DNA from: a virus
Strand: one strand, 5' to 3'
DNA: 64,000 bases
IMG/VR virus record: IMGVR_UViG_3300045988_122441
The notes beneath the pieces were generated by a model. The model was not told the DNA's origin, made no database searches, and was given only the letters and a program-made list of their open reading frames with translations. Both the position numbers and the translations under genes were made by a program. Shown here piece by piece: positions 4,453 to 35,546 of this stretch (the stretch's first letter is position 1; the number at the start of each line of letters is the position of its first letter).

Positions 4453-4663
4453 ACTGAAAAGATCAATCGCATGGCATAGCATTAAATATGTTTTGACAGC
4501 AATATTTATGGTGCTTAATCTTCTCGGAATACTGCATTGGTATTGGGTGTGGATATTTTTCCCGATCCTGTTATCGCTGGGGATAAAGATACTGATATTA
4601 GTTGTACTTAGTTTCTTTGTTTGCGTATTACCGAGATGGACTGAGAGGTGGACGGAAGAATGA
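4436..4663 (+). CDS. small membrane protein, unknown function
   Basis: 75-aa ORF with two hydrophobic helices (VLTAIFMVLNLLGILHWYWVWIFFPILLSLGIKILILVVLSFFV). Overlaps both neighbouring genes in operon style. Confidence 0.5.
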   Translation: MSRKNELKRSIAWHSIKYVLTAIFMVLNLLGILHWYWVWIFFPILLSLGIKILILVVLSFFVCVLPRWTERWTEE

Positions 4664-5088
4664 GAAGATTATTTATTATGAGAAAAGATTTACATATGTC
4701 TACAGGAAAACTGCTTGCACAGGTAATGCACTGTGCCGAAGCATACTGGACTTCAAAGATTCGTAAGGGTAATTTATACCGAACAAACGATGGACAGTAT
4801 ATGGCGCAAATGACAATGCCTGTTGAAGTGTATACAGACTATGTATGCGGATCATTCACAAAGACAGTGTGTGAGGCAAAGAATAAGAACCAGTTGCTTA
4901 AAGCAAAAGCCATTGCAGATGAGTTGGGTCTTGTGGAAGACATTGATTATGGGTGTATTTATGATAACTGCCTTACAGAGCTTGAGCCAGAAGAAGATAA
5001 CGGCACAACACTTACTGGCATTTGGTTTTGTCCGTTAGATGATGAGATTGCTCACAAGATCAGTAAAAAATATCAATTATATAAATAG
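4660..5088 (+). CDS. peptidyl-tRNA hydrolase, PTH2 family-like
   Basis: Signature RKDLHMSTGKLLAQVMHCAE matches the PTH2 DLxMxxGKxxAQxxHA motif. C-terminal D..TE..G..T..G..P block is also present. GAGGTGG lies about 9 nt upstream of ATG 4660. Confidence 0.6.
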   Translation: MRRLFIMRKDLHMSTGKLLAQVMHCAEAYWTSKIRKGNLYRTNDGQYMAQMTMPVEVYTDYVCGSFTKTVCEAKNKNQLLKAKAIADELGLVEDIDYGCIYDNCLTELEPEEDNGTTLTGIWFCPLDDEIAHKISKKYQLYK

Positions 5089-5099
5089 GAGAGAAAATA

Positions 5100-5555
5100 A
5101 TGACAACAGTAAATATGAATGTAAAGAAATTAAATAATGATTCCATCGTACCTACAAAAGGCTCTGAATATGCGGCAGGACTTGATTTATACGCATATAT
5201 CGAATCCGGTGCGGTTGATATCCCGGCAGGATCGACAGTAAAAATCGGAACAGGTGTTGCAGCAGAAATTCCAGTAGGATGTTTTGGCGGTGTATTTGCG
5301 AGAAGCGGACTTGCTACAAAACGAGGATTAAGACCATCTAACTGTGTAGGTGTAGTTGATTCTGATTATCGTGGAGAAATCATCGTTGCCGTACATAATG
5401 ATTCGGATAAGTGCGAAACAATTCATCATGGAGATCGTATTGCTCAGTTGGTTATCATGCCGTACATTAGTGTTAGCCTACAGGAAGTTGAAGAGTTATC
5501 TGATACGGAACGTGGAGCTGGCGGGTTTGGTAGCACAGGAGTTTCGCTGTCATAA
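5100..5555 (+). CDS. dut: dUTP diphosphatase
   Basis: All dUTPase motifs present: AAGLDLYA, ARSGLA, GVVDSDYRGEI, GDRIAQLV, RGAGGFGSTG. Confidence 0.9.
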   Translation: MTTVNMNVKKLNNDSIVPTKGSEYAAGLDLYAYIESGAVDIPAGSTVKIGTGVAAEIPVGCFGGVFARSGLATKRGLRPSNCVGVVDSDYRGEIIVAVHNDSDKCETIHHGDRIAQLVIMPYISVSLQEVEELSDTERGAGGFGSTGVSLS

Positions 5556-5560
5556 TGCAA

Positions 5561-5590
5561 AGAGGTGGGCGTAAGCCTGCCTCTATTTTA
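5561..5590 (+). terminator. hairpin plus U-rich tail after dut
   Basis: AGAGGTGGG-cgtaag-CCTGCCTCT forms a 9-bp stem with two G-U pairs in plus sense, followed by ATTTTAT. Near-duplicate of the hairpin at 7485-7515. Confidence 0.5.
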
Positions 5591-5608
5591 TAAGGAGATA
5601 TTATACAT

Positions 5609-5797
5609 ATGGAGAAAATATTGATGAGCCTCAAAGAGGTATGTGAGTACACAGGGTGGGGAGAAACAAAGGTCAGAGAGATACTGAAAAGACCTAATAG
5701 TACGTTTACAGTGATACTTGGAAATAGACTGTATGTTAATAAGAAGAAATTCGATGAATACTTAGATAGATGCGCGAAATACCATATCCCTGTGTAA
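5609..5797 (+). CDS. excisionase-like / MerR-type HTH DNA-binding protein
   Basis: 62 aa. LKEVCEYTGWGETKVREILKRP is an HTH_17/Xis-like motif. Lies directly upstream of the integrase. Confidence 0.55.
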   Translation: MEKILMSLKEVCEYTGWGETKVREILKRPNSTFTVILGNRLYVNKKKFDEYLDRCAKYHIPV

Positions 5798-5829
5798 AAG
5801 TTTGCAGTTGTATTTTTGCGTAAAATAGT

Positions 5830-5852
5830 GTAATGTATATGTGTAAGTTGAT
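5830..5852. repeat. left copy of a 23-bp inverted repeat bracketing int
   Basis: GTAATGTATATGTGTAAGTTGAT. Its reverse complement occurs at 7462-7484 with one mismatch. Confidence 0.8.
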
Positions 5853-5877
5853 GCTGTAGTCAATATAGAAAGGAATA

Positions 5878-7080
5878 TTGATTATGGGAAGAGACTTAAA
5901 TGGTAAAGAACTGGGCAGAGGATTTAGTCAGAGAAAGGACGGTAGATACGAAGCCAGAGCCGTTATATGCGGCACAAAAATAGATATTTATGACATGAAT
6001 CTAGCAAAGCTGAAAAAGGAATTTGAAGCTGAGAAAGCTAGAGTGTTACGAGACGAAAAGAATGTAAGACCTAACGTCACGTTTGGAGAGTGGTATCAGG
6101 AATGGTTTGAAAAGTGTAAATCACCTCAGTTAAAATCTGATGTAAGCAGAAAGACGTATGACAGAAAAGTAAGAAATACCTACTGTAAAATTCTCGGAGA
6201 GAAACGAATGGAAAATATCTCTCAGATGAATATGCAGGCTGCTACAACAGAGTTGATTGAGAAAGGATATACAGACCGTTCTGTAAGAGAAGCTCTCGGA
6301 ATTGTGAACGAATGTATGGAGATTGCTATTGTAAACCACATCATCAATGTAAATCCATGCGTAGGAATTAAAATCCAGAATGCAAACGAGCGTAAAGAAA
6401 GAAGAGTTATGAAGCAGTGGGAACAGGACTTATTCTTGAACGAGGTCAAGGATAGATATTACTACGAAGCGTACAAGATTCTTCTTCTAACTGGAATGAG
6501 AATCGGAGAGTTCTCTGGGTTGCAATGGCGAGATGTTGACTTCGAGAATAAAGTCATCAATATTAATAGATCCATGCAGACCGCATATATTGACGGAAGA
6601 AAGATCGAGGAACTTACTACACCGAAAACAGCCAACTCATACAGAGCAATCCCGTTCTTTGGAGAAACAGAAGCTTGTTTGAAGAGCTGGAAGAAGAAGC
6701 AGGACGAGTATAAGAAACGTCTGGGTGACAGATGGAGAGCAAGACCTGAGTTAGGCGATCTTGTTTTTACAAGCACTGTAGGCTCGCCTGTGACTCGATA
6801 TGTCATTGTACATGACATAGACAAAGTAGTCCAGAACATCAATCTCAAAGAGATGACAAAGGCATTCAGAGAGCACAGAGAGCCAGTGATGTTTGAACAC
6901 TTACATCCACATGCTTTTCGCCACACATTTGCAACACGTTGTTTTGAAAAAGGGCTTGACCCATTGTTTGTACAGAGTATAATGGGACATGCCAATTATG
7001 CAACTACGGTGTCATATACACATATATTAGACGATTTGCGTCAGAAAGAGGTGCAGAAGGTTGGTAACTTCTTAGAGTAA
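5878..7080 (+). CDS. int: tyrosine integrase (phage integrase family)
   Basis: Catalytic block LHPHAFRHTFATR..GHANYATTVSYTHI. The upstream R is in LLLTGMRIGEF. An alternative ATG start is at 5884. Confidence 0.9.
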   Translation: MIMGRDLNGKELGRGFSQRKDGRYEARAVICGTKIDIYDMNLAKLKKEFEAEKARVLRDEKNVRPNVTFGEWYQEWFEKCKSPQLKSDVSRKTYDRKVRNTYCKILGEKRMENISQMNMQAATTELIEKGYTDRSVREALGIVNECMEIAIVNHIINVNPCVGIKIQNANERKERRVMKQWEQDLFLNEVKDRYYYEAYKILLLTGMRIGEFSGLQWRDVDFENKVININRSMQTAYIDGRKIEELTTPKTANSYRAIPFFGETEACLKSWKKKQDEYKKRLGDRWRARPELGDLVFTSTVGSPVTRYVIVHDIDKVVQNINLKEMTKAFREHREPVMFEHLHPHAFRHTFATRCFEKGLDPLFVQSIMGHANYATTVSYTHILDDLRQKEVQKVGNFLE

Positions 7081-7085
7081 GAGAG

Positions 7086-7445
7086 TTGCGTAAACCTTAC
7101 ATTGCGTCGAGATTGAAGAATCCGCGATACAGTAAGCTCGAAAAGAGTTGCGTAAAAGTTGCGTAGATAGCAGAATTTAATCTCCGTAAGCCCTTGAAAT
7201 ACAAGGAGTTAAGAAAATACTTCGCAATTCAGATGGGAATGTAAGTACCTCAGCAAACTAAATCGTATAAGCCTTATAATTACTTGAAATTCAATGACTT
7301 GCAGAAGGCTTGTGTCTAATATGTGGTTTGAGTAACTATCATAAAGTATCGTATTTTAAGGAAAAATATCATATGGTTTTGCGTCAAAGTTGAGTAGCGA
7401 ATTGCGTAAGATAAATTTTGATTATCTTCAGCGAAGTTTACGCAA
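7086..7445. repeat. cluster of TTGCGTAAA-type 9-mers (candidate integrase arm-type sites / attP region)
   Basis: TTGCGTAAA at 7086 and 7148. TTGCGTAGA at 7159, TTGCGTCGA at 7102, TTGCGTCAA at 7379, TTGCGTAAG at 7402. Inverted copy at 7437-7445. One more copy at 5816-5824 upstream of int. Confidence 0.5.
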
Positions 7446-7461
7446 AATGATGGGTTACAGT

Positions 7462-7484
7462 ATCAATTTACACATATACATTAC
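7462..7484. repeat. right copy of the 23-bp inverted repeat
   Basis: ATCAATTTACACATATACATTAC is the reverse complement of 5830-5852 (22/23). Confidence 0.8.
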
Positions 7485-7515
7485 GGGGTGGGTGAAAGCC
7501 TGCCCCTTTCTTTTT
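7485..7515 (+). terminator. rho-independent terminator for the plus-strand block
   Basis: GGGGTGGG-tgaaag-CCTGCCCC (8-bp stem, two G-U pairs in plus sense), followed by TTTCTTTTT. Confidence 0.65.
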
Positions 7516-7555
7516 GAGAAAAAGAAGGCAGACTGGTAAATCAAACCAGTCTGCC
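7516..7555 (-). terminator. rho-independent terminator ending the minus-strand late array
   Basis: Perfect 11-bp stem GGCAGACTGGT / ACCAGTCTGCC (7527-7537 / 7545-7555), followed on the minus strand by TTCTTTTTCTC. Confidence 0.75.
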
Positions 7556-8470: not shown

Positions 8471-10069
8471 TTACAGTTTTACGCAGTAATCAAGAGAAAT
8501 CCATCCGGCTCCGGATTTCAGTTTTCCCCAGCCCTTAGTAGAGCCAGTTCCTGCTTTTTCCTCAACAATAGTGAAAGTTCCCTTTCCGGTGTATTTACCA
8601 GTAATAGGATAGTTTGTGCCAGCTCCAGAACGAATTCTGAGATCACTTGCGTCAACACGAACTTTGTACGGTACGTTGCTTGCAGCTGGTTTTGAGGAGG
8701 AACCAGATACGGTGGAACCAATCGTACAATAAGACGCATTTGCAAGGTAAATCCAGCCAGCACCAGACTTCAGTTTTCCCCATCCGTTGCTGAGAGCGGT
8801 AATTGTGAATACACCCTTGCCAGTCTGACCAACAATATCGCCGTTCGGTGTTTTTCTGATGTTCAAATCAGATACCAGAACATTGACTGTGAACGGAGTG
8901 TTCGGGAAGTTGGTGTTTGTCTTTGACGGGGTAGTAGTGCTTGTAGAACCAGAAGAGCTTCCTCCGGTAGATGTAGAGCCGCTTCCCAGCAATGCATTGA
9001 TACGATTTGCTAAATCACCGTATCTTGAATATAGCCAGTTACCAGGGCAACTCTTGTTCGCAAAGAAGCGATGAGCAGTCAGAACCATCTCATTGCTCTT
9101 TGGTTCGTATGCCAGAGCTGCTTCCTTACTGCCTTTCCAAACTACTTTGGTTTTGCCGTTTCTACGACAGATATCAGCGCAAAGCTTAATCAGTTTTTCG
9201 TAAACGACATCGTTCATTTCGTAAGGTTCTTTCATACCGCTTGCACACTCAATGGTGATTGCTCGCTGGTCGTTTGCATTACTGGATGAACACCAGCTAC
9301 GATTAGCCTCGTCCACGCATAACACAACTCGTCCATCTTTACCGATACCATAGTTACAGCTTGCCTGTACGGAAGAACTTGTAAAGCAGCTGCCGATAGA
9401 TTCAGCGGAGAGCTGTCCAACAACGCAATGCGGTGTTAATCTGTCGATTGAGTGAGTACGTCTGCCGCTGTGGTTAGGACTCTTTACCACACAATCTACA
9501 AGTGAACTGTTTGTGTAACCCATAGTCGTACCTCCTTCTGTCTGAGTTGTTTTTGAAGCAAATTTGTCGTAATATACCTGACCGTAGGATGCTCTGCGGC
9601 TCTGTACAGCAGAACTCTGGTCAGCAGGACGCTCATACTTTAAGAGCACAGCATTTGATGCCTGCAGAACGGAAGTAGCACTACGCAGTTCAGAGAGAAC
9701 AGTACCGTAGTTTTCACTCAGTTCCTTGTACATGAACTCAAGCTGCATCTCCAGATCACCAATAGATGTACCTTTAGACTGACAGAATGCAAGTAATGCC
9801 TGCTTTCTGCTCCAATAAGTCCACTGGCACAAACCATAGCCAGCACTGTCTCGTACAAAATTCTTGTATGATCCGTTATCGACTGCTGCCGTATAAGCCG
9901 CATCGGTATATCCGAGTTTCTTTTCAAATGAATTTTGCAGGTTGGTAGGGACTAATCCGCTTTCTGCGTAGATGTTTCCCATGAGACCTGCGGCTCCGTA
10001 TTTGCTCATTCCCTTGCCAATACAAAAGTTCCAGATGCGTTCTTCATTTGTCGTTCCTGTTAATGCCAT
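8471..10069 (-). CDS. modular endolysin: lysozyme-like domain + N-acetylmuramoyl-L-alanine amidase + two SH3b repeats
   Basis: N-terminus GAAGLMGNIYAESGL..CQWT (phage tail lysozyme-like). Middle HSIDRLTPHCVVG..AITIECA (amidase_2-like). Ser/Gly/Thr linker. Two repeats ending GWGKLKSGAGWI. Confidence 0.85.
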   Translation of the reverse strand: MALTGTTNEERIWNFCIGKGMSKYGAAGLMGNIYAESGLVPTNLQNSFEKKLGYTDAAYTAAVDNGSYKNFVRDSAGYGLCQWTYWSRKQALLAFCQSKGTSIGDLEMQLEFMYKELSENYGTVLSELRSATSVLQASNAVLLKYERPADQSSAVQSRRASYGQVYYDKFASKTTQTEGGTTMGYTNSSLVDCVVKSPNHSGRRTHSIDRLTPHCVVGQLSAESIGSCFTSSSVQASCNYGIGKDGRVVLCVDEANRSWCSSSNANDQRAITIECASGMKEPYEMNDVVYEKLIKLCADICRRNGKTKVVWKGSKEAALAYEPKSNEMVLTAHRFFANKSCPGNWLYSRYGDLANRINALLGSGSTSTGGSSSGSTSTTTPSKTNTNFPNTPFTVNVLVSDLNIRKTPNGDIVGQTGKGVFTITALSNGWGKLKSGAGWIYLANASYCTIGSTVSGSSSKPAASNVPYKVRVDASDLRIRSGAGTNYPITGKYTGKGTFTIVEEKAGTGSTKGWGKLKSGAGWISLDYCVKL

Positions 10070-10089
10070 AGAGAAATCAATCCCCTTTC

Positions 10090-10112
10090 GTAAATAATTT
10101 AATTAGCATGAC
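10090..10112 (-). promoter_or_regulatory. copy 1 of a conserved 23-nt motif (minus sense GTCATGCTAATTAAATTATTTAC); candidate phage promoter
   Basis: Lies 21 nt upstream of the endolysin ATG. Five further copies occur in the same orientation (see findings). Confidence 0.45.
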
Positions 10113-10134
10113 TGTCTAACAAGAAAGACGGGCT

Positions 10135-10530
10135 TTAATTCCCGTCCTTGCTAGTAGCTGCTGTATTTGTTTTTACAATTTCACGCAGAGTATCCAATGC
10201 AGAATCAATCTGCTCGTCAATCCATTCAATCAGAGCTTTCTGATCTACGACTTTAGAGAGAATAGGATATTCCTCATAGATCTGCTTGATTACCTGAGCA
10301 CGTTTGATAGAGCCTGCTTCGCTCCATTCCTGCCAGTCAACCTCTGCATCACTAATCATTTTCAGAATAGTTGTCTGAATCTGTTTCTTAGCGATTTCAA
10401 TCTTTTCATCCTGGCTCTTAGACATATAATCCTGAGTTTTCTTCACGATGCCGATGACAAGACCGATGCATACGAGAATGCTTGTCCAGTTATCGTTCAG
10501 GAGCTGTAAAAATTTCTGTAATCCTTCCAT
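10135..10530 (-). CDS. putative holin (LL-H-like: one N-terminal TM helix plus a helical tail)
   Basis: TM helix WTSILVCIGLVIGIV followed by a charged helical region. Sits just upstream of the endolysin. Confidence 0.5.
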   Translation of the reverse strand: MEGLQKFLQLLNDNWTSILVCIGLVIGIVKKTQDYMSKSQDEKIEIAKKQIQTTILKMISDAEVDWQEWSEAGSIKRAQVIKQIYEEYPILSKVVDQKALIEWIDEQIDSALDTLREIVKTNTAATSKDGN

Positions 10531-10536
10531 AATCTG

Positions 10537-10923
10537 TTACCCCTTTCCTGATTCTGAATTGCTTGTTATTTCCTGTTCTTTCATAGCAGTCTCATAGACT
10601 ATTCCACCTTCTGTGTTCTCAGCCTTTGACTTGCTGTAATATCCGAAGATAACAGGTGCGAGAGAAGCTACAATACCGAGCAGGGCATAAGCCTGAGATA
10701 AATCGCAGAGTCTGTGTGATTCATACATGAACCAGATAGCGATGCAGAAAACAAGAATAACCATAGCCCAGAGAACAAGCTTACTGTTGGAGATACTTCT
10801 GGACTTCTTCTGCCGACCTTTTGCTCGCTCAGCCTTGAGCTTTCTAAGGCGTGCCTTGCTTTCATTCTCATGCTTGATACGCAGCATCTCAGCGTTATAT
10901 TCTTTTTCACTGATATATCTCAT
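10537..10923 (-). CDS. two-TM membrane protein (possible holin/antiholin partner)
   Basis: Basic N-terminus, then LVLWAMVILVFCIAIWFMY and AYALLGIVASLAPVIFGYY. Located in the lysis neighbourhood. Confidence 0.45.
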   Translation of the reverse strand: MRYISEKEYNAEMLRIKHENESKARLRKLKAERAKGRQKKSRSISNSKLVLWAMVILVFCIAIWFMYESHRLCDLSQAYALLGIVASLAPVIFGYYSKSKAENTEGGIVYETAMKEQEITSNSESGKG

Positions 10924-25338: not shown

Positions 25339-28300
25339 CTACCACTGATATTTATTTTTCGAGAGCTTACTGCCACCAGATAACTGGTCAACAGTCATGG
25401 AACGAATCATCTTTTCAAATTTTCCGTCCTTACGCATCTGGTTCATAAAATCGTTGTAGTCTTGTACATGTTCTATCGGAATTGTTACCTGATAGGTGAT
25501 GTCTCCGATATTTGTTGTATCTTTTCCGGATATAGGCGCACTTACCTTAGCAAGCTGTGATAATACATTTGCAGCGCCCTCATCTCCTCCAAACAACTTG
25601 CTCAAAGGATTATTTCCATCAGCAATGCTTCTCATAGCATCTTTCAATGCAATGAAGTTCTGTGTGTCCTCTGGGTTTAGAACCATTTCTGGCTCTGTAG
25701 GAGAACCGTCAAGCCAAGCTACTCCGGTATAGTCGGCAAGACCACCTTTCTTGAATGCGCTGTAGTAATACTGGGATAATTTGCTCTTTCCGGTCTTTAC
25801 CCAGTAATTGTACAGATCACCATTGTTTGCATGAGCATTAATGTATTTCTGTACGGCAGCCGCATTAGAAGCACCAAACTTTGCTGTCAACCGCTTCTTT
25901 CTGTCAGGGTCATTTCCCCATCCAGACTTAGAGCCGTAAATCCAGATAGCTGCGGCAACACCACGTTTCACGTCCTCATTGAATTTTGGTTTCGTAGAGG
26001 TAGTCGTAGGTGTTTTTGGCGTGCTAGTAGATGTAGGCGGCTTCGCAGAAGTGTCTGTTTTGGTAGATGGAGTTGCAGAAGACACTGTCTTGTTAGCCTG
26101 ATTATCGCTTTCTTTGACCATAGCACCAATTTTGTATGCTATTTTTGTAATCACATCATTGACTGATGTAAGTTGTGTCAAGAAAGACTCTCCGTACTTT
26201 GTGATGATAGAGTATCCGCCACCCTCATTTGACCAAATGGACTTCATGGCAGCAGATAAATCATATCCAACTTTGTCGCTCTGTGTCTGTAACGTAGTGC
26301 TAATTGTTGCAGAGTTGGCATTGATTGTATCAATCATGTCAGAAATCAAAGCATCGATATTATCAAGACGTTCATTCAGAATTGCCTCGTACTCATCATA
26401 CAGATTATCAAGGAGCTTTTTCTGCTCACTGATATAGTGCTCATACTGCGTCTCCTCAAGGTCGTCCATAGCGTCAGCCAGGTCAACCTGAATCTTTTGT
26501 ATGGTAGCTCTAGTCTCTTCTGAATTATCACCGGAATATGCAGATAACTGTTTCTGCAGTTTAGCAATCTCTGATGACTGTTTTTCAATATCTTTCTGAT
26601 AATCATGTAGGTCTTTGGCGGTATCCATTGCCTCAGTGTATTTGTCAATCAAATCCTGTAAGGCATCAAGTTCTTTTTCGATACCATTAGCCACGAGGTC
26701 TTTAATTGCTTGCTTTTCATCCTCAGCCGCAATGATTGAATCACGCTGTGCCTCCAGTAATTCCTGGCGATGCTGTAACAGCGTTGTATTGTTTGGGTCT
26801 TTTGCAATCTCTGCATTTAACTTCTTCAATTCTTCTGCATACTTATCAGCCTGAGCCATGTATACATTGTAGTTTTGACCACGAAGACCTAGTGTTGCCA
26901 TACCAGTATCGGTAAATTTACCGTTATCAGTAAACAAATCAGTGTTCTCCATTAAGTCAATCATAAAGTTGGCTTCATCAGTAATATTACTGATCTGCTC
27001 TTGCAGATACTCAAACCGTTCCCACTTGATTTCTCGTATCGAATTATTGAATTCGATGACAGCGGTTTCAGACTTCTGAATAGATTCTTTTACCGAATTG
27101 ATATCGTTCTGCATGTCATACCATGCTTCACTGCCTTCTTTGATTTCTCCAGAATTTACAGCTTCTGACATTGCTTTTGTGAGAGAAGCAAGTTCCTTCT
27201 TCTGAATAGCAATATTCTGTTTTTCAACATTTCGCATAGCTTCATAGAATTTGGTACTTGCAAGATATCCGCGAGCTTCAAGGTTATCAATACCGTTGTC
27301 ATAGGTATTAGTCAGATGCTCCAACAGACTAAGTTGATTCTCAAAATCGTTTGAGAGATTATCAAATCTATCTTTATATAGGCTGGCAATTTCTTCATGC
27401 AATTCTGCGACGGCATCTTTTGCTTTAATTGCTTTCTCATAGAAATCTTGATAATCCTTAATCTTATCAGCAAGGTCTTCGTCTGTGACGGTTGTGATAT
27501 CAATAGAACCATTCTGAATCTTTTTGACCCAAGATTGATCCAGACCAAGCGAGTTGGCTTTCGCCATATATCCCTCGTATGCCTTGTTTTCTACATCAAT
27601 CTTCTTTGTAATAGCTGCCATTTCTTTGACGGTAGCTTTATTACGGGTGCTAAGAGTTTGGAATGCACTGTCGGCTGTTATCTTTAGCCGATCAATAGCC
27701 TCTGTAGCTCTATCGACAGCTATGGCAATAAGGTCAAATACTTCTTCAAATTCTTTTTCTTTGGTAGATGTAGAATTTGATTTTGATTTTGAACTTCCGC
27801 TAGACCTTGTCCTGGAACCGCCGGATGATTTAGAACCACTTGAACTCTTCTTAGAAGAAGATGGTTTTCTGCTTGTAGAAGAGGCACTCGGTTTATATGG
27901 CTTATAACCACCAGTGACCATTGCAGTACCGCTTACAAGGGCAGAAGCTCGTCCGGCAACATAGCCATTCTCCAACAGACTTTCTGTTTGTCTATGGTTG
28001 AATACAATAGCTCCAGCAGGTATATCTCTGAATTCAGCACCGTTGTCGCCAACTGTATACCACTTGCCTGTGCGTGGGTCTACGACGATTTCTCGTCCAA
28101 GTTCTCCAACAAGTGTACGTCCTCCTGGGGCAGTTCCCCAGTCGCCGCCCACTCTTGCAGTACCGCCCGCATGAGCAGTACCATTAACACTGACATCTCC
28201 AGTCTTCACGTAATTTACATATCTTGTGATAGTGCTAAATGAACCTGGAAGATTTGCTGTATCCGCAACATAATTAACTGTTCTGTTAATAGATGGGAAA

Positions 28301-31039
28301 GAGGTTGGCAATAAATCCGTCTTAGGGTCATAGATCACGTCGCATGTCTTAGACTCTGGATTGTACCCATCAATAGCGGAGGCATCTACTTTTGCCTGAA
28401 CATTAATTGTTTCTGCCGATAAATTTGCGATTGATGTCTGAATAGATTCTACGGACGTAGAGTCTATATTCAACTTCGCTTTAATATCTGGCGAAAGATT
28501 CTGAATTTCAGAAGCGAGAGAGTTTACCTGAGATTCAGCCTCGCTAGTGTCAGCACCTACTTTCTGCTTGATTTCCAGATCATTTGTGGCATTCTGGAAT
28601 TGCTGCAGAAGTGAGATTGCGTTGCTGACTTCGCCCTCAACCTGAGAAGCATCGACACGCATAACATCAGGCTGTGAAAGGAGCTGCTTCTGTGTAAGGC
28701 AATACTGAATAACAGCGTTGGCATTGTCAATGCTCGAAGCATCGACATCCGGTCTAGCTTTAATGCTATCCATCTCAGCAATCGTTGCATCGAGGGCATT
28801 GATCTGTTCCTCTGTTGTAGAAAGATCAGATACATCCATCTTAATTTTCAGATCGCTGTTGCCGTCTAACTGTCGTAACGATTCAGCAGCTTCATTGGCT
28901 TCTACAGCTAAATCACCTACTGTTTTAACTGCTTCGTCTCCCCAGTCAAATTCAGCACCTTTCAACTGTAATTCATCGAAAAATGCCTGGACAACACCAG
29001 AAGATAAGTTCAGTCCCTCTGCGAAGTCCTCCATCTTCTTGCCACCGAGGACTTTAAATCCGTCATCTTCGCTATATGACATCAGTCCGGCATCAACAGA
29101 TTTCTGAAGGAATTTATCAATATCAAGACCGTCAACAACTCCGTCGTCATCGAATCTCAGATACTGTTTGAAGTCCGACATATAGGACTCAATAGCACCG
29201 AGATCTTCACGATCAACAGAATCTGGTACGATGAAATCTACGGCAGCTTCAAATTTCTTTGAACCAAAGTTCCCATAGATATCAGAGTTCGCATCGTATG
29301 TATCACGAATTTGCTGTATAGCACTAACAGTATCATTCGCCATATCTCCATAATCAGAAGCACTCTGTGCATTTAACCAATGCTGGTAAGCACCAACAGC
29401 TTCCTGAATAGAAGCGGAGAGTAAGTCGTACTGAGCACATGTATCAGCAATAGCACTGTTTTCATCCAGTAAGGCATCTATTGAAGCCTGTATGCTGTCG
29501 GCTGTTTCGCCTTCTGCAAAACTTGCATCCCGTAACTGCTGACGATATTGTTCAATCTGTCGTGCGTTCTCAAGATATTGAGATTGTGCCAGTGCCTTGT
29601 TTGTGTTGTTGATAGCAACCTGTTCGTCTGCTTTGGCTTTAGCAATTTCTGCTACTTTATCCGCATTTAACTGCATTGTGCCATTGACATACTCAAGAGC
29701 ACTTCGATAATCTGCGAGTTCATCAGAATTGAAATCTTCTACGGATATAGACTTTCCGGTCATCTGACCGTTTAATACAGACTGTACTGCATCAATCTGA
29801 GATGTCAGCTCCTGCGTTGCTTTAGTTGTATCGTCTACGGCATTCTGAATTCTTTCTGCATTGGATACGACAGCCTCGCCCGCATCGTCCGTAGCTTCTG
29901 CACTGGAATTGATAAGATCTACGAAGTCGCTGATTGATAATCCGGCACCTTCAATGGCAGAAGCGAGTTCAGGATATTTTTCCTTTACATCGTCAACCGA
30001 TATACCAGCTCCGTCAGTAGCCTTTGCTAATTCTGTGAGTTCATCCTTAGCCTTCTTGTATTCATCGCTATTTAATATTTCATTAAATTGCATCTGTTTC
30101 CAAGCAGTAGGGTCTAATTCTGAGTAGATATAGGCAATCTGGTCATCAATCTGACTTAACACATCTGAAGCGCCGTCAACCTTTGCAAGTTCTTCTTCGG
30201 GGAGAGCTTTAAGCGTGTCTCTATATTCTGTAAGAAGTTTTACCTGATCCCAGATAGAATCTGTTAAATCCTGATTCAGATCGTCGTAATGTTGGATGTC
30301 TTCTTCCAACCATTTGATATCATTCTCATTTCCATCCTTCTGTGCTTTTGCAAGCTCATCCTTAGCTTCTTGCTTCAAAGCATCGAACTGTTTTATAGCT
30401 GCAAGCATAGAAGAAACATCAGTCGGCTCGACAGTAAGACCAGCATTATTCCCCGTCATCTGAGCATAATCTTGACGCTCTTTGGTTTGACTTGCACTGA
30501 TTTCATTTTTGAAATTCTTTTTATATGCTGAAACAGTATCTTCAGCAGCTTGTCTGGCTGCTTTATTTTCTTCTCTTTCAGCTAAGTCCTGCTGAATTAA
30601 CAGCTGTTCAGTAGCATCTTTGAGCTTCTGGAGTTCTGCCTCCTCCACAAATGTAAGATGTTCTTTACCAAGCAGCTCATCCATAGAAGCCTTTGTTGTG
30701 TCTAATTCTGAGTTGACACTTTCGAGATTAGACTGAGCTTCTTGATAAGCACTGTATGAATCACGCATCTTATCATTAGCTTCTGATGCAGATACATATG
30801 CCTTTGATATTGCGTAAATACCTGCGGCAACGGCAGCCGCAATAGCGACAATCGGTACAAGTGTTCCGGATAACGCAGCAGCTCCAGCAGATAATGTTCC
30901 GAATACGCCAGCTCCACTCGAAGCGGCTGCAGCCATCTTTGCAATCGCATCTCCTACACTACCGAAAGATAACTGTAGCGCCACGAATACATCTGATAAA
31001 GACTTTATTCCTCCGATGTCTTTAGTAACAGACAATAGA
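25339..31039 (-). CDS. tail tape measure protein, 3' exon (C-terminal ~1900 aa)
   Basis: Long coiled-coil sequence. N-terminal hydrophobic Ala/Gly-rich segment. TMP-type block GGDWGTAPGGRTLVGELGREIVVDP. No SD before the ORF-track ATG at 31056, so it probably needs splicing to the 5' exon. The 5' boundary is approximate. Confidence 0.7.
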
Positions 31040-32042
31040 CATGTCGGGTATTTCATGGTAAAATTGAATAAAATCTATGGGAGGTATATTTATGGCTTTG
31101 ATAAAATGTCCCGAGTGCGGACAAGATGTGTCTGATAAAGCAATACAATGCATCCATTGTGGATATCCTTTAAATATCCAGAAAGATAGTGCTTATGATA
31201 TTATCTATAATGGATTTGAAAATAATTCATTAAAATACAAGTATCAAGCAAATCTGATAGGATGTATAAGACAACTGCTGAAATTAGATTTAACAACTGC
31301 GAAAATGATTATTGACAACCCACCATATACTCTTTTCCATTCTGTATCAAAAGAACAGGCAGAATGGATTATTACAACATTAAAACCGTTTCAATGCAAT
31401 GTTACTGCAAACGAATCTAATAGCGATATTCAGTCAAATATTGAAATTGATTCTTATATGGCAAACGGATCAACATTGATATGCCCGCATTGTGGTTCTA
31501 ATGAAGTTATAACAGGTCAAAGAGGCTTTTCATTATTAACCGGATTTATAGGCAGTAATAAAACCATCAATAGATGTGGAAAATGCGGATATAAATGGGA
31601 ACCGTAATTTATGTCTTCTTATCGACGCTGACATATGCGTACCATGATTAGAGTGAGAGATAAGTTCTCACTACACGAGGACTATACATTAAAAGTCGCT
31701 ACACTAGGCAGTAGCGGCTCAAAGGGTGGGTAGTCTCTGAGGATGAAGCTGTGAGTCTTCGTCCGGCTGATGTCATCCTATCTGCAGAAATATCTGCGTA
31801 GCACTTAGGCTTACTATCACCATATGCCATCCAATCATTTGTTTCTGCCTTTCGCAACGTTCACGCTTATTGTTTCCAATTACGTTGTAGTATGATTGGT
31901 TTAACCAGTTTCCCAGCAATTACCCCTTTGTGTGATTTGTTTTAAAACGCTCACCCATAGCCTTGGCTCATATCTCCAAAATTGATATGTCCTTGACCAT
32001 GCCGACCTCTGTTACAGATAACCCATGATTTTGGGTCAAGCC
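31040..32042 (-). mobile_element. group I intron in the tape measure gene (catalytic core about 31950-31650; splice sites approximate)
   Basis: Read in minus sense. P-like AAUUGCUGGGAAA. Q-like GCCUAAGUGCUACGCAG. R-like UCAGAGACUAC. S-like GUAUAGUCC. Pairings seen: P3 CAAAGGG (31930-31924) / CCCUUUG (31726-31720); P5 CCAAUCAU / AUGAUUGG; P7 GACUA / UAGUC; P8 CGCUAC / GUAGCG; P9 AGUGAGA / UCUCACU. Confidence 0.7.
31092..31607 (+). CDS. double zinc-ribbon protein with a ribosomal L7/L12 C-terminal-like middle domain, encoded antisense within the intron
   Basis: GGGAGG at 31079-31084, then ATG 31092. CPECG..CIHCG and CPHCG..CGKCG ribbons. Middle segment LIGCIRQLLKLDLTTAKMIIDNPPYTLFHSVSKEQAEWIITTL resembles the L7/L12 CTD. 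Confidence 0.65.
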   Translation: MALIKCPECGQDVSDKAIQCIHCGYPLNIQKDSAYDIIYNGFENNSLKYKYQANLIGCIRQLLKLDLTTAKMIIDNPPYTLFHSVSKEQAEWIITTLKPFQCNVTANESNSDIQSNIEIDSYMANGSTLICPHCGSNEVITGQRGFSLLTGFIGSNKTINRCGKCGYKWEP

Positions 32043-33829
32043 ACGTTCTTGATAATTTTGGCTATTCCTAATCCTACAAGAATGGTCTTTAATGAACCAA
32101 ACGTGCTGATTACTTTATCAATAGCCTCTACAATACCTCTAAGAGCATCGACAGCTCCTTTTGTAAAGTCTGAGTCGAAAACGTCAGAAGAGAGTTCCTG
32201 AAATGCAGCTTTCAGCTCTCCAACTTTTGCCTTAGTGGTATCCATGTAAATATTGTTTGCTTCTGTTGCAGTTCCAGCAGAATCCATAGCACTTGCATAA
32301 GCACCGATAGCATCCTTGATATTAGTGATTGTAGACATAATACCTGATGTATTACGTGTACCACCAAGAATTTCTGCAACACGAGACTGGGATACATCTT
32401 CCATGTTGTCCCAAACTTCTGCAAGCTGTACGAAGATGTCATACATATCCTTATATGTGTTTTCATCTTTCATGATGTCAACGCCGGATAATGCCATGAT
32501 TTCTTCTCTATACTTAGACAGACCCTGAGCTAATCCGTCTGTCTCTTCACCCATTTCCTCAAGCTCTGTTGTAGCCCCTCGGATACGAGCACTTACTGTT
32601 TTCCACATTGTACCTGTGGTTTCAGCATTCTGAAGGGATGCGTTTGTTGCGGCGAACAAAGCAGCACTCTTCTCGAAGTCAGTTCCAGAAGCATGGAGTG
32701 CAGCACCACCTCGCTGAAACGCAGCCATAAGTTCCTCGGCTGAGATAGCGTATTCCTGACCTACCTTTACGAGCACATCTGATACGTGTTCTGCATCACT
32801 TGCATCCATTTCGTATCCCTTTATGATAGAAGTAATACCAGTTGTAGCAGTGTCCACGTCAGTGTTACCGACATTTGCCATGATATTTGCATATTTAGCC
32901 AAATTCGATGAATCGCTCATGTTGTATCCGAGTCGAGCAAATGTTTCGATAGATGATGCTACATCAGTTACACTCTGACCAAGCTCTTTTGCAAGAGAGA
33001 TGGACTTCGTAAGAAACGCTTCCATTTGAGAATCAGAGGCTCCAGTTACAATCTGGATCTGAGCCATAGCACTTTCGACTTCAACAGCAGCAGAGACCAT
33101 CTGTTTTACAGTTCTAATCGCATACATGATTGCCTGTGAAACCGTCAACCATGAAGAGAATTTTGAAGCCAGACCGGATATTCTGTCACCAAATGACTGT
33201 GTATTTTCTCCAGCTGTTCTGATAGCAGTTGATGCATCAGTTACAGTTGCTTTAATAGAGGCAAAACGCTCTTTGAACTGTTCAGCCGAAACAGATCCAT
33301 TCATTAACCCTGTTTTTAACGCTTCTAATGCAGTGATCTGGTCTTTAAGCGCAGAATAGCTTGTACTGGTATTACCGTTTCTTGCCGCAGTCCATTTCTG
33401 AGTATTTACAGTTACCTGTCCAAGAAGATTGTTTACTTTGGTCAAAGCATCTGTATGTTTCTTTGTGCCGACTGCAAAAGCATTTTCACTCGCTGCAGCC
33501 TGTTTTGTAGCATCGGCGGCTTTCCTTGTAGCATTGGCATTAGCATTTTTTGCCTGTGTGTTGGCATTGATAGCTGCGGTATCTTTTACCCATATTCCTG
33601 AATTGGTCTTTGTGTATCCACCTGCTAACTTTGCCGCATTTGCGCTCGATGCAGCCTTAGTCATAGATTCAATCTGCTGTCTCATAGAAGACAGGGACGA
33701 ATCATCAAATTTAAGTTTTATTTTCGGTGGATTAGCATTGACCTGAGAAACCAGACTGGTAATTCCCGCCTGAAATTCAGCATAGCTCAACGAAGTATCC
33801 ACGCCGACTGTCAGTAAAATGTCAGCCAT
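32036..33829 (-). CDS. tail tape measure protein, 5' exon (N-terminal ~595 aa)
   Basis: TP901-type TMP core (QIQIVTGASDSQMEAFLTKSISLAKELGQSVTDVASSIETFARLGY). The frame stops at UGA 32038-32036, exactly where the intron-like sequence begins. Confidence 0.75.
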   Translation of the reverse strand: MADILLTVGVDTSLSYAEFQAGITSLVSQVNANPPKIKLKFDDSSLSSMRQQIESMTKAASSANAAKLAGGYTKTNSGIWVKDTAAINANTQAKNANANATRKAADATKQAAASENAFAVGTKKHTDALTKVNNLLGQVTVNTQKWTAARNGNTSTSYSALKDQITALEALKTGLMNGSVSAEQFKERFASIKATVTDASTAIRTAGENTQSFGDRISGLASKFSSWLTVSQAIMYAIRTVKQMVSAAVEVESAMAQIQIVTGASDSQMEAFLTKSISLAKELGQSVTDVASSIETFARLGYNMSDSSNLAKYANIMANVGNTDVDTATTGITSIIKGYEMDASDAEHVSDVLVKVGQEYAISAEELMAAFQRGGAALHASGTDFEKSAALFAATNASLQNAETTGTMWKTVSARIRGATTELEEMGEETDGLAQGLSKYREEIMALSGVDIMKDENTYKDMYDIFVQLAEVWDNMEDVSQSRVAEILGGTRNTSGIMSTITNIKDAIGAYASAMDSAGTATEANNIYMDTTKAKVGELKAAFQELSSDVFDSDFTKGAVDALRGIVEAIDKVISTFGSLKTILVGLGIAKIIKNVA

Positions 33830-34462: not shown

Positions 34463-35074
34463 TTATTTATCTCCTGTAGGCATCTGCACAACCTTTGAGT
34501 CTTTAGATTTGTCCATATATGCCTGTACGACTTTTCCTTCGTCTATATTTCCATCAGACATTGCATGGATAAGAGCTGCTAGATCATCTGGGTTCACTCC
34601 GGCATAGATCCCCGCAATCTGATTTACCAGATTTTCACACTCATCATTGATATGCTGCATCTGATTCATAACTGCCTGTATATTTGCCTGTGCAATATTA
34701 GAAACTTTATGCTCAATAGCATTGATAATTTCACCGAACTGACGACCCTCGATATGGTTCAGAACGGCATCTACAATATCTGAATTATAGATAACCGCAT
34801 ATCGTGTAGGTAAGTCTTCTGGCAGATTGAAGTTAGCGTACATCTCCAGTAAGCAGCTTTTGATTGCAAAGTCTTTAACTTCTGGCAGGTATTCGCCATC
34901 ATCACCGAAGCAAGTTTTTGTCACGTAGTCAACAAATTCCATCATGGTTTCCATCGAGAGAACTCTATTTACGACAACGCTCATGCCGTTCCACTCAAAT
35001 TCTGCAGTAGGTTCTGAAATTTTGTTTACAGCTTCGATCAGTGTAGACGCATCAATTCTATTTGCTTTTTCCAT
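34463..35074 (-). CDS. putative tail assembly chaperone
   Basis: Acidic ~200-aa protein upstream of the TMP. GGAGGAAGAAAATA precedes ATG 35074 (MEKANRID..). The ORF-track start at 35134 is less likely. Confidence 0.45.
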   Translation of the reverse strand: MEKANRIDASTLIEAVNKISEPTAEFEWNGMSVVVNRVLSMETMMEFVDYVTKTCFGDDGEYLPEVKDFAIKSCLLEMYANFNLPEDLPTRYAVIYNSDIVDAVLNHIEGRQFGEIINAIEHKVSNIAQANIQAVMNQMQHINDECENLVNQIAGIYAGVNPDDLAALIHAMSDGNIDEGKVVQAYMDKSKDSKVVQMPTGDK

Positions 35075-35546
35075 TATTTTCTTCCTCCATTTTCTCTTTT
35101 TGGGCTTCTCGCTTAGCCTTTCTTCGGATAGCACGTTGTTTCTTTACATATTCGTAAGAGCACCATCCTCCATCAATTCCTGAATAAGTCACCCATCTAT
35201 AATCTACGTCCGGGAATTTATACCAAAATAATTTCCTTTTGATATTTGCGACCGAATCCGGACATCCTTTTGTGTCAATAACGACCTCAGTTCCGTCCTT
35301 ATATACAATGAAAAAATCCGCAACGTAGGTAATTGGGTGAACGTTTTTGTCGTCGTGTTTGAACTTTGGTTGTAACTCATATGGTTTCTGAAGCTCAAAT
35401 CTTACCACATCGCCACTCTCCACTAGGGGGCAAAGTACATCACGATAATATTTCATTTCCAGTATGGAATCGAATACGATACCATCATAAGTACGATTTG
35501 AAGTGTCTTTATCGACATTGAATTTCGTTCTTGCGATAATAATCAC
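35058..35546 (-). CDS. DUF1064-family PD-(D/E)xK-like nuclease
   Basis: YDGIVFDSILEMKYYRDVL..GDVVRFELQKPYELQP..ITYVADFFIVYKDGTEVVIDTKG..IKRKLF matches the DUF1064 pattern (FDSxxE..Y..L / YxADF / xxDxKG). Confidence 0.65.
   Translation of the reverse strand: MIIIARTKFNVDKDTSNRTYDGIVFDSILEMKYYRDVLCPLVESGDVVRFELQKPYELQPKFKHDDKNVHPITYVADFFIVYKDGTEVVIDTKGCPDSVANIKRKLFWYKFPDVDYRWVTYSGIDGGWCSYEYVKKQRAIRRKAKREAQKEKMEEENNGKSK

Follow-up and report, generated by a model that had tools for sequence, protein, structure and literature searches.

To our knowledge, proteins encoded within bacterial and phage introns are generally assumed to be homing endonucleases written on the sense strand. The locus described here lies in a 64,000 nt stretch of DNA (the window; IMG/VR record IMGVR_UViG_3300045988_122441) from a large SPbeta-like phage of gut Clostridia. 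It raises the question of how a gene antisense to an intron, with a product which does not look like a nuclease, came to be kept within the tape-measure protein (TMP) gene, and what its role could be.

The split tape-measure gene

The TMP gene is carried on the minus strand, encodes a product of ~2500 aa and is split by a group I intron. Exon 1 (32039..33829, minus strand; 597 codons) contains the PhageMin_Tail domain (PF10145, E 7e-26) and ends with AAC GUG GCU; the following in-frame codon, the first of the intron, is UGA. Exon 2 (25339..31032, minus strand; 1897 codons and the stop) starts with UCU GUU ACU AAA (S-V-T-K), and the motif S-x-x-K-x-x-G at this start is kept in all lineages. Its first 8 nucleotides (31032-31025) also form the exon strand of P10, and the boundary was placed at UCU 31032 because the conserved protein and P10 both begin there. 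The ATG at 31056 (MKYPTC...), which is the choice of ORF finders, was rejected as the start of exon 2, as relatives have stops there or no ATG, and G31075 was rejected as the boundary on the same grounds.

The predicted ligated product reads KNVA|SVTK across the junction, and the predicted spliced RNA junction is AACGTGGCT|TCTGTTACT, also written AAGAACGTGGCT|TCTGTTACTAAAGAC. Uninterrupted, single-ORF TMPs of Brevibacillus phage Sundance, Enterocloster phage PMBT24 and contigs L149, L151, L159 and L162 align across NVA|SVTK, and we infer that removal of the intron would restore a continuous TMP gene. All of the uninterrupted TMPs found are distant (about 27-36% identity). No close intron-less TMP allele was found in a search with the junction peptide, and megablast with 15 kb of the sequence found no relative among GenBank phages.

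Guide sequence and ribozyme core

The intron (32038..31033, minus strand) is 1006 nt long and runs from U32038 to the terminal G31033. As the 3' splice site is at 31033|31032, the antisense ORF, its ribosome-binding site and its promoter are all inside the intron; this site was absent from the initial annotation of the locus.

The internal guide sequence (32003..32015, minus strand) comprises the P1 and P10 strands. Its P10 strand, GUAACAGA (32015-32008), base-pairs with the 8 nt that open exon 2, and GGUCG (32007-32003) forms P1 with the end of exon 1, UGGCU (32043-32039), leaving a U.G pair at the splice site. This U.G pair is present in 14 of 14 lineages, and P1 covaries among them (UAUCU/GGAUA, UAGCU/GGCUA, UAGGU/GCCUA). 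Across the 14 lineages 92.3% of the P1 and P10 cells are paired, a percentage which is inflated because guide positions in some lineages came from a pairing-maximising search. The compensatory changes, seen at 9 of 13 pairs, are free of that inflation; the exon ends to which they are tied were defined independently. P10 has 8 bp in this intron and 5-12 bp in those of relatives, with compensatory changes at 6 of its 8 pairs. For L165 and L173 the automated P1/P10 calls were left out as apparently spurious, since a stop interrupts the exon peptide inferred from them; the strict pattern used for the 5' end of the intron gave no P1/P10 call in 11 lineages. The first hairpin (UGACCCA/UGGGUUA) was also considered as P1 and rejected, as it would leave the splice site without a U.G pair; this hairpin is an inserted element which separates the 5' splice site from the guide sequence.

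The ribozyme core (31625..31930, minus strand) is supported by covariation and comprises P3 (31930-24/31726-20), P4 (31917-13/31770-66), the P5 extension (31899-31831), P6 (31764-57/31748-41), P7 (31735-31/31684-80), P8 (31716-11/31702-697), P9 (31672-66/31658-52) and an extra hairpin, P9.1 (31640-37/31628-25). From P3 to P9.1, including the P3/P7 pseudoknot, it consists of 15 helices and 86 pairs, with all the standard helices present. Pairing in the alignment is 89.6%, compared to 35-42% when the structure is slid along it, and 42 core pairs have changed on both sides. The consensus J3/4-P4 and P7 sequences were also found in the intron (AAUUGCUGGGAAA, UCAGAGACUA and UAUAGUC). The core makes up the 5' 40% of the intron, and roughly 590 nt separate P9.1 from the 3' splice site. 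The heptamer GAUAAGA is conserved 3' of P9.1. A helix which would close the ORF cassette (CGAUA...UAUUG) was rejected, as inspection by eye found that it is not kept in L004.

Rfam, at its gathering and E-value thresholds, gave no hit for this intron type in the region, the core alone, Staphylococcus phage loci or 17 family loci. The present intron does not match RF00028 even at E<=10, likely because P5 carries an extension of ~140 nt and P1 has insertions. The case for an intron therefore rests on covariation, by which the element is classed as a group I intron. Genuine RF00028 introns have the same P5 module, which on other contigs lies inside RF00028 matches of 52-92 bits.

The antisense gene and its product

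The antisense gene (31092..31607, plus strand) encodes 171 aa, and its reading frame, stop included, lies wholly within the intron. A Shine-Dalgarno sequence, GGGAGG (31079..31084, plus strand), ends 7 nt before the ATG at 31092, and GGAGG-like motifs occupy the equivalent position in relatives. The family alignment starts at this ATG (MALIKCPEC) and not at the upstream ATG at 31077. More than 1387 homologues of the protein were found and dN/dS is 0.06-0.085; at the level of sequence comparison, the homologues, the purifying selection and the constant position confirm that the ORF did not arise by chance.

Three parts can be distinguished in the protein. Residues 1-27 form an N-terminal zinc ribbon (Pfam PF13240, E 2e-8), residues from about 34 to 110 a domain like the C-terminal domain of bL12, according to PF00542 and an AlphaFold2 model, and residues from about 128 to 171 a second zinc ribbon (CxxC...CxxC) with the conserved loop TGQRGFS..TGF.GSNKT.NRC. 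PF00542 (L7/L12 C-terminal domain) scores 25.6 bits in the window protein, below the cut-off of 25.9, whereas homologue P0080 reaches 57.8 bits. The model has a pLDDT of 84.9, and among PDB entries Foldseek matches it best to the C-terminal domain of E. coli L7/L12 (1ctf; TM 0.89, rmsd 1.7 A). The zinc ribbons are the best-conserved parts of the family, above the bL12-like domain, and the C-terminal one is a portable module which is present on other phage proteins too.

The protein should not be mistaken for bL12 itself. The full-length model TIGR00855 gives 16.9 bits against a cut-off of 84.4, and a zinc ribbon takes the place of the N-terminal dimerisation/uL10-binding domain and hinge. Because the uL10-binding domain is absent, incorporation into the ribosomal stalk is unlikely, and on these sequence features the source labels 'ribosomal protein L7/L12' for P0066 and P0092 are considered misnomers. 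On the factor-binding surface of bL12, the family majority keeps I69, R73, L80, E82 and K84; the window protein keeps I69, R73, L80 and K84, and is changed at K65Q, V66A, K70G and E82T.

Searches of Pfam, PHROGs, PADLOC, NCBIfam, PDB and BFVD for a nuclease motif or fold matched only zinc ribbons, bL12 and ClpS folds. No catalytic set of His, Asp or Glu is conserved in the family, the invariant residues being Cys, Gly, Pro, Asn and Trp. PADLOC, PHROGs and NCBIfam gave no functional assignment for the protein, and none emerged when the C-terminal module was compared with PDB sequences and with PHROGs.

Much of the initial annotation, which was made from the sequence alone, is borne out by these results. 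It had placed an ORF antisense to a group I intron, 3' of a P9 ending near 31650, with GGGAGG and an ATG and a length of 171 aa, and the covariation, the intron boundaries and the position of P9 agree with this. Its reading of the protein, with a zinc ribbon at each end and a middle resembling L7/L12, withstood the structural and remote-homology checks which it had proposed, as did its view that this is not a recognisable homing endonuclease. The ORF also passes the conservation test.

Promoter and base composition

A sigma-70-type promoter is predicted at 31036..31064 (plus strand), within the final 32 nt of the intron, and consists of TAGACA, a 17-nt spacer and a TG-extended TAAAAT. It matches the consensus at 10 of 12 positions and is the top site of the region. 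Across 35 distinct lineages the promoter is kept, with a score of 10.8 where controls give 7.2 +/- 1.3, while the surrounding sequence diverges, and in some of these lineages the -35 hexamer straddles the 3' splice junction. Plus-strand transcription is inferred to start near 31071-31074. Free-standing copies of the gene have a near-perfect promoter, TTGACA-17-TATAAT.

The gene also differs from its surroundings in composition. Its GC content is 31.5-32%, compared to 40-46% in the flanks, its GC skew is reversed, and it is the sole credible plus-strand gene within a 48-kb minus-strand block. Its transcription must oppose that of the TMP gene by virtue of its antisense position, as had been expected of a gene convergent with a late gene. 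No plus-strand terminator-like site was found within 30700-32300; because no intrinsic terminator follows the gene, one classical feature of a moron is missing and read-through into the ribozyme core is likely.

Distribution of the intron and the gene

The gene occupies the equivalent intron position in dozens of diverged phage contigs, and the intron lineage with its antisense gene is present in hundreds of gut viral contigs. As the initial annotation had advised, related introns were surveyed for alleles without the ORF, with two core-derived queries, a 24-mer and a 17-mer. All 13 assessable intron copies found in this way, independently of the ORF, carry an intact gene, and no degenerate copy was seen among them. 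Four ORF-less matches to the 17-mer (L220, L223, L224 and L231) were rejected as chance matches inside coding sequence. Protein identity among the intron-borne copies is as low as 27-36%, and the distance from the gene to the 3' splice site is 54-77 nt throughout the lineage. Because it is present in every assessable copy despite this divergence and at a constant distance from the splice site, the gene is regarded as an ancient, fixed part of the element, which speaks against the earlier idea of a recently landed passenger. The sequence comparisons suggest a gene which is fixed in the intron lineage and is not cycling, and the co-evolution of P1 and P10 with the exons is as expected for long vertical descent.

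Among the best 80 viral loci, 58 have the same divergent arrangement beside a giant exon 2, and in 68 the gene lies inside the TMP gene or one to two genes upstream of it. Where relatives have an uninterrupted TMP, the gene stands free, just upstream of the TMP gene and co-oriented with it, and some homologues are far from any TMP, in unrelated or non-tail contexts. At the same intron site, sister lineages have built up antisense cassettes of two to five genes; introns related to this one, 1.6-3.6 kb in length, hold further antisense genes for DUF6173, DUF2513 and PF00227 proteins. Pfam and PADLOC gave no functional assignment for these neighbouring cargo proteins.

Proposed explanation and alternatives

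The explanation in which moderate confidence is placed, taken as a whole, is that an autonomous accessory gene of the moron type, and not a mobility factor, became anciently fixed in the intron. On late transcription of the TMP gene, the intron would fold and excise itself along with the antisense gene, the unusually long P10 (8-12 bp) capturing the distant 3' splice site; splicing is deduced here from structure and homology. The 3' part of the intron would form an independent plus-strand transcription unit of promoter, ribosome-binding site and gene, which host RNA polymerase would read from its consensus promoter, uncoupled from late transcription. The intron would provide a neutral site for a moron-type gene within an essential operon, and the antisense protein, predicted to be cytosolic, zinc-binding and non-nucleolytic, would be dispensable for intron mobility. 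A moron had been one of the options in the initial annotation, and it gains from the conserved promoter, the low GC content and the free-standing copies with a promoter of their own. The leading guess for the mode of action, held with low confidence, is mimicry of the C-terminal domain of the bL12 stalk, whereby the protein would bind a usual bL12 partner (EF-Tu, EF-G, IF2, RF3 or the ribosome) and both zinc ribbons would provide targeting. This guess is weakly grounded because the zinc ribbons are better conserved than the bL12-like domain. The changes at several factor-binding positions in the window protein also count against stalk mimicry.

A pure moron model does not explain why the gene is adjacent to the TMP in both its intron-borne and its free-standing form, and it could have a function connected with either the TMP or the intron. 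A role tied to the tail, such as aiding the translation or handling of the giant TMP, would account for the adjacency seen in most of the best 80 loci and would suit a domain which in bL12 recruits elongation factors. It is quite improbable, however, for a gene which has its own predicted constitutive-type promoter and an antisense orientation in place of co-transcription with the tail genes, and which has family members in non-tail contexts. A maturase or splicing cofactor, binding the intron RNA and helping it to fold so as to reach the distant 3' splice site, would fit a long intron with a remote splice site and a gene present beside that site in every copy of the lineage, and the zinc ribbons and alpha/beta bL12 fold could bind RNA. 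This is equally doubtful, since homologues are free-standing in phages with an intron-less TMP and others are in unrelated contexts, the core has all its standard helices, and the long P10 is already an RNA-only solution. The maturases known to us are derived from LAGLIDADG proteins or reverse transcriptases, which also counts against this reading. It is unlikely that the zinc-ribbon/bL12-like protein founds a new class of intron-associated proteins, free of nuclease or LAGLIDADG ancestry, which secures the persistence of the intron by aiding splicing or by targeting the TMP site; this reading would account for the constant adjacency to the 3' splice site as well as for the TMP neighbourhood of the free-standing copies.

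The initial annotation had also proposed a new kind of mobility factor. Such a protein would be an endonuclease or nickase of novel fold which cuts the intron-less TMP gene at NVA|S, whether embedded or free-standing ('collaborative homing'). Alternation between embedded and free-standing forms is typical of homing endonuclease genes, and this family alternates between the intron and a site upstream of an uninterrupted TMP. Homing endonucleases commonly bind DNA through zinc ribbons, and those of the family give weak, zinc-ribbon-level matches to two models, an HNH PHROG (E 0.004) and the 'HEase' model of PADLOC (E 0.004-0.04). Mobility is nevertheless unlikely given a protein with neither a nuclease fold nor a conserved catalytic set, an intact gene in all assessable introns, no close intron-less alleles in the searches made, a guide sequence which has co-evolved with the exons, and homologues distant from any TMP. 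Finally, antisense transcription itself may be what is selected, in which case an RNA antisense to both the ribozyme and exon 1 would silence or time the TMP, for example in a lysogen, and the protein would be secondary. The conserved position of the promoter at the 3' splice site, its overlap with the junction in some lineages and the likely read-through into the core would agree with this, but the protein sequence is under strong purifying selection, and free-standing, co-oriented copies keep both protein and promoter where there is nothing to silence, which makes it very improbable.

Comparison with known systems

Group I introns have been described in the tape-measure genes of Bacillus cereus group prophages (Tourasse and Kolsto 2008, PMC2504315). 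As there, a self-splicing-type intron is found in the TMP gene of a Firmicutes phage, with P1 and the guide fitted to the site; the antisense gene is a difference, none being mentioned in the passages of that paper which were consulted. The 8-12 bp P10, the antisense unit in the 3' part and the lack of detection by RF00028 are further differences. The present introns offer a tractable system for asking how a ribozyme reaches a 3' splice site 0.6-3 kb away, for which the long P10 is a candidate answer.

Antisense genes within group I introns have a eukaryotic precedent in I-DirII of Didymium, a homing endonuclease gene in a nuclear rDNA intron. Other nuclear rDNA introns, for example L2066, also carry antisense homing endonuclease genes (PMC9548176). 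These resemble the phage locus in having a protein gene opposite the ribozyme strand, in a peripheral part of the intron. They differ in encoding His-Cys box nucleases which mobilise the intron, whereas the phage gene has a predicted bacterial promoter and no nuclease features.

Phage morons such as lom and bor of lambda and gp15 of HK97 share with this gene the promoter-plus-gene unit within a late structural operon, the deviant base composition and the dispensability for virion structure. Classical morons are intergenic, usually with a terminator at their end; the gene described here is inside another gene, where predicted RNA splicing would neutralise it, and has no evident terminator. A widespread phage intron lineage has kept an antisense, non-nuclease gene with a predicted promoter through deep divergence, which suggests that phage introns may shelter independent accessory genes within essential genes. 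A self-splicing intron would be a safe harbour, allowing accessory genes to reside within an essential late gene without imposing a cost on that gene.

Cargo other than homing endonucleases is known from fungal mitochondrial rps3, a non-endonuclease gene in an organellar group I intron, and from bacterial IStrons, group I introns with a transposase. The giant ND5-717 group I intron of corals likewise houses non-endonuclease genes (PMC6545197). The site of such cargo can be a peripheral loop or the 3' end of the intron, a feature shared with the phage introns. They are organellar and sense-strand, or transposase-carrying, in contrast to the antisense, promoter-equipped accessory genes of the phage introns.

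Virus-encoded proteins with a bL12 domain are already known (Mizuno et al. 2019, PMC6375957). The antisense protein is similar to these in being a phage-captured bL12 C-terminal domain, found in varied proteins and contexts and under purifying selection; the zinc-ribbon/bL12/zinc-ribbon architecture and the intron location do not appear in the passages of that study which were consulted. The locus provides a tractable system for the role of such phage-borne proteins. In annotation, Rfam misses the intron, and gene callers split the TMP in two, place the start of exon 2 on a false ATG and name the cargo 'ribosomal protein L7/L12'.

The antisense gene and its surroundings

The plus-strand ORF at 31092..31607 is present as the initial annotation described it, encoding 171 aa plus a stop, with GGGAGG, a putative ribosome-binding site, at 31079-31084, 7 nt ahead of the ATG. 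It is flanked by two long minus-strand frames, one of 597 aa (33829..32036) with a PhageMin_Tail domain (PF10145, E 7e-26) and one of 1905 aa (31056..25339), which ORF finders start at MKYPTC. Between ~7.9 kb and 56 kb the window is a single minus-strand structural block, of which this ORF is the sole credible plus-strand gene. Its GC content is 31.5-32%, against 40-46% in the surroundings, and the GC skew is reversed.

A predicted group I intron in the tape-measure protein gene

Comparative analysis shows that the gene for the tape-measure protein (TMP) is split by a predicted group I intron that is structurally complete. Rfam Intron_gpI (RF00028) had no match in this region or to the core alone, either at gathering score or at E<=10, and the assignment was accepted despite this because several independent lines agree. 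By blastn, 31800-31928 matches unannotated DNA of Staphylococcus phages, in phiIPLA-RODI behind a truncated tail-tube gene and in PMBT8 next to three RF00028 introns. The segment in common, a P5-extension module, ACTACAACGTA..GAAA..CGTGAAYGTT, lies at 31856-31891 (minus strand) and in loci L026-L138; it occurs in >119 viral contigs among the matches listed, and in L052, L075, L032, L042, L057 and L085 it falls within the P5 loop of RF00028 matches scoring 52-92 bits. Group I motifs are present at J3/4-P4 (AAUUGCUGGGAAA), J6/7-P7 (UCAGAGACUA) and P7' (UAUAGUC). The core was modelled by hand over a 12-lineage alignment, with the P3/P7 pseudoknot among its 15 helices. In this model 89.6% of cells are paired; sliding the partners lowers the figure to 35-42%, and shuffles give 80.4%. 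Both sides are altered in 42 of 86 pairs. Furthermore, TMPs encoded by a single ORF, those of Brevibacillus phage Sundance and Enterocloster phage PMBT24, can be aligned across the junction, as can those of four metagenomic relatives (31-36% identity). Prophage TMP genes are already known to contain group I introns (PMC2504315).

The intron is placed at 32038..31033 (minus strand, 1006 nt), as relatives at several divergence levels define the splice sites and the 5' site, exon 2 start and guide pairings fix both ends. The 5' splice site is the 32039/32038 boundary, where in all relatives exon 1 ends in xCU and U(G/A)ACC follows. Exon 2 starts at 31032 with a UCN codon preceded by G, and its protein begins S-x-x-K-x-x-G, the constant start of the conserved exon 2 protein in relatives. 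The ends of both exons pair with a guide sequence 29-51 nt inside the intron: P1 of the window joins GGUCG to exon UGGCU, and P10 joins GUAACAGA to UCUGUUAC. The corresponding pairs are GGAUA/UAUCU and AUAGCAGA/UCUGCUAU in viral locus L009, GGCUA/UAGCU and AAUUGUGGG/UCCACAAUU in L015, and GCCUAU/GUAGGU and AAUGA/UCAUU in L182, both helices varying in concert with the exon sequence across lineages. In a composite P1/P10 alignment of 14 lineages, for some of which the guide position was picked by a pairing search and the exon ends independently by reading frames, 92.3% of cells are paired versus 28-50% when slid, with compensatory change in 9 of 13 pairs and an invariant U.G. The long P10 may offset the distance from the core to the 3' splice site. 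The ATG at 31056 is intron-internal, in frame with exon 2 and without a Shine-Dalgarno sequence; the predicted spliced TMP has 2494 aa, joining ...KIIKNVA to SVTKDIGG... Public gene calls of relatives misplace the exon 2 start in like manner, and TMP exon 1 is 709 aa in L004, L006 and L007 against 597 aa in the window.

The P5 module marks a large phage intron subfamily (>119 viral contigs), of which RF00028 finds a part and misses members with longer insertions, the window intron included. A GAUAAGA motif at 31608-31624 (minus strand), directly after P9.1 and beside the ORF stop, is kept across lineages and is explained by none of the tested helices.

Selection, putative promoter and predicted transcription

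The antisense gene is real and under selection: dN/dS is 0.06-0.085 and there are >1387 homologues. Loci L003, L004 and L146 share 89-92% of nucleotides with the window across the ribozyme core; the figure falls to 66-73% for the ORF and to 62-80% for the exon flanks.

ORF, ribosome-binding site and promoter-like site are all intron-internal. The top promoter-like site of the region is TAGACA (31036-41), a 17-nt spacer and a TG-extended TAAAAT (31056-64) on the plus strand, with 10/12 consensus matches. A lone match has little weight by itself, and its weight comes from recurrence across lineages: an equivalent -35/17/-10 element is found 17-52 nt upstream of the ATG in 35 distinct lineages, the sequence around it not being conserved. 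The promoter score averages 10.8 in these lineages; random positions within those loci give 7.2 +/- 1.3, and the observed median is attained by only 0.4% of such controls. Host RNA polymerase would be expected to transcribe the gene from its own promoter without relying on the late operon, and splicing would take it out of the TMP mRNA. No plus-strand terminator was found downstream of the gene, and the transcript probably runs on into the antisense of the ribozyme.

Distribution and additional cargo

The closest homologues (42-92% identity) are likewise antisense at this position, in related contigs that carry YomU/V/W-type tail genes. Relatives are encoded by at least 543 viral stretches. 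Among the best 80 of these, 58 (plus one truncated locus) have the gene divergent from a giant frame on the minus strand that opens <=131 nt upstream of the gene's start. In 27 loci nhmmer picked up a copy of this ribozyme core beyond the 3' end of the ORF, on the other strand, and in most of them it lies right after the ORF stop. Related introns lacking a conserved ORF, named in the initial annotation as a refuting observation, were not encountered: ribozyme-only probes led to 13 assessable intron copies, and each has the gene, which is shown to be an ancient and constant component of this intron lineage.

Ten loci (L148-L162 type) have an uninterrupted TMP; there the gene is free-standing, co-oriented and two genes upstream of the TMP, and keeps a near-perfect TTGACA-17-TATAAT promoter. 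A few distant members are found in other settings, beside resolvase, PC4 and Metallophos genes in L012 and in Anaerostipes phage AC844P2. Bacterial-genome relatives are more distant and mostly from Clostridia MAGs, and no close relative was found in GenBank phages.

Other introns, such as the L182 and L206 types, have a more diverged core and the same 5' hairpin, P1 and P10; they span 1.6-3.6 kb and contain additional antisense genes. The sister introns measuring 2.8-3.6 kb (L009-L011, 5497-8546; L182, L206, L195 and L198, ~3940-7550) each have between two and five genes, most of them antisense, showing that the intron site can gather further cargo. This cargo, placed downstream of the zinc-ribbon/bL12 gene, includes a DUF6173 protein, a DUF2513 protein, a proteasome-like PF00227 protein and several unknowns (270-430 aa), with no PADLOC match.

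The encoded protein

Most homologues are of 160-200 aa and keep the three-part architecture proposed from the sequence, a zinc ribbon at each end and an L7/L12-like middle. Eight cysteines and the Pro, Gly, Ser, Asn and Trp of both ribbons are invariant, and the C-terminal ribbon has a conserved loop, TGQRG(F/Y)S..TGF.GS.KT.NRC. In an AlphaFold2 model (pLDDT 84.9, pTM 0.67) the central domain resembles the E. coli L7/L12 C-terminal domain 1ctf (TM 0.89), ClpS being the next-best fold; BFVD matches are viral bL12 and ClpS proteins. PF00542 scores 25.6 bits in the window protein (cut-off 25.9) and 57.8 bits in its homologue P0080. The bL12 N-terminal domain is missing, with TIGR00855 far under cut-off. 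Of the bL12 factor-binding positions, I69, R73, L80, E82 and K84 are retained in most family members; the window protein keeps I69, R73, L80 and K84 and has Q65, A66, G70 and T82 at the others. Some public gene calls label the protein 'ribosomal protein L7/L12'.

No nuclease or defence signal was found in Pfam, PHROGs, PADLOC, NCBIfam or PDB, which bears out the view that this is not a recognisable homing endonuclease; the PHROGs match is phrog_2546, of unknown function. The C-terminal module recurs in other phage proteins, joined there to unrelated N-terminal parts, and therefore acts as a portable module. Such fusions (CPxCGS..TGQRGYS..TGF.GSNKTVNRC..CG..WKP) are in L193 (3467-4381), L196, L199, L200 and L217, and one bears an HExxH-like motif, WHEFTH.

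Possible roles

The initial annotation offered a choice between a moron and a new mobility or maturase factor. The own promoter-like site and low GC favour the former, and the data fit a moron-type accessory gene for which the intron provides neutral ground within an essential gene. The only antisense intron ORFs known are those for His-Cys homing endonucleases in nuclear rDNA introns (PMC9548176). With no nuclease-like feature in this protein, a new homing factor is unlikely. A maturase, for which constant association with the ribozyme might speak and the free-standing copies beside uninterrupted TMPs might not, is slightly less probable. A regulatory antisense RNA, conceivable from the read-through into the ribozyme strand, is the least probable of these given the selection on the protein. 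The observation that the moron model accounts for least well is persistent nearness to TMP, as the gene stays close to it in both intron-borne and free-standing forms; this could point to a TMP-linked function, which we consider about as improbable as a maturase.

For the accessory gene itself, the best lead, a weak one, is that the protein would present translational GTPases or the ribosome with a mimic of the bL12 C-terminal domain, its zinc ribbons providing the targeting. Proteins with a bL12 domain have been described from viruses (PMC6375957). A partial survey of the literature turned up no earlier description of a non-nuclease gene, equipped with a promoter, lying antisense in a group I intron of phages or bacteria.

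Other elements

In Staphylococcus phage phiIPLA-RODI (KP027446, L001) the gene annotated as 'tail tube' (112 aa) seems to be truncated and is followed by ~800 nt of unannotated DNA with the P5 module and then a 337-aa ORF, 'Ioh'; 856-2993 is probably an unannotated, Rfam-negative intron. Staphylococcus phage PMBT8 (MK893987, L002) has tandem RF00028 introns at 2705-2976, 3053-3302 and 3372-3736 and a fourth, Rfam-negative element with the P5 module at ~2500-2620, 2500-3740 being unannotated throughout. L005 has a GIY-YIG/NUMOD3 endonuclease gene at 9975-10799; at this place L004 and L007 (10310-10953), like the window (35058-35546), carry a DUF1064 gene instead. A full-length RAGATH-16 RNA at 58646-58718 (plus strand; RF03047, 89.8 bits, E 2e-16) is the sole Rfam match at gathering score within the window, and RAGATH-18 is found in viral contig L085 (163-247), adjoining three tandem group I introns.
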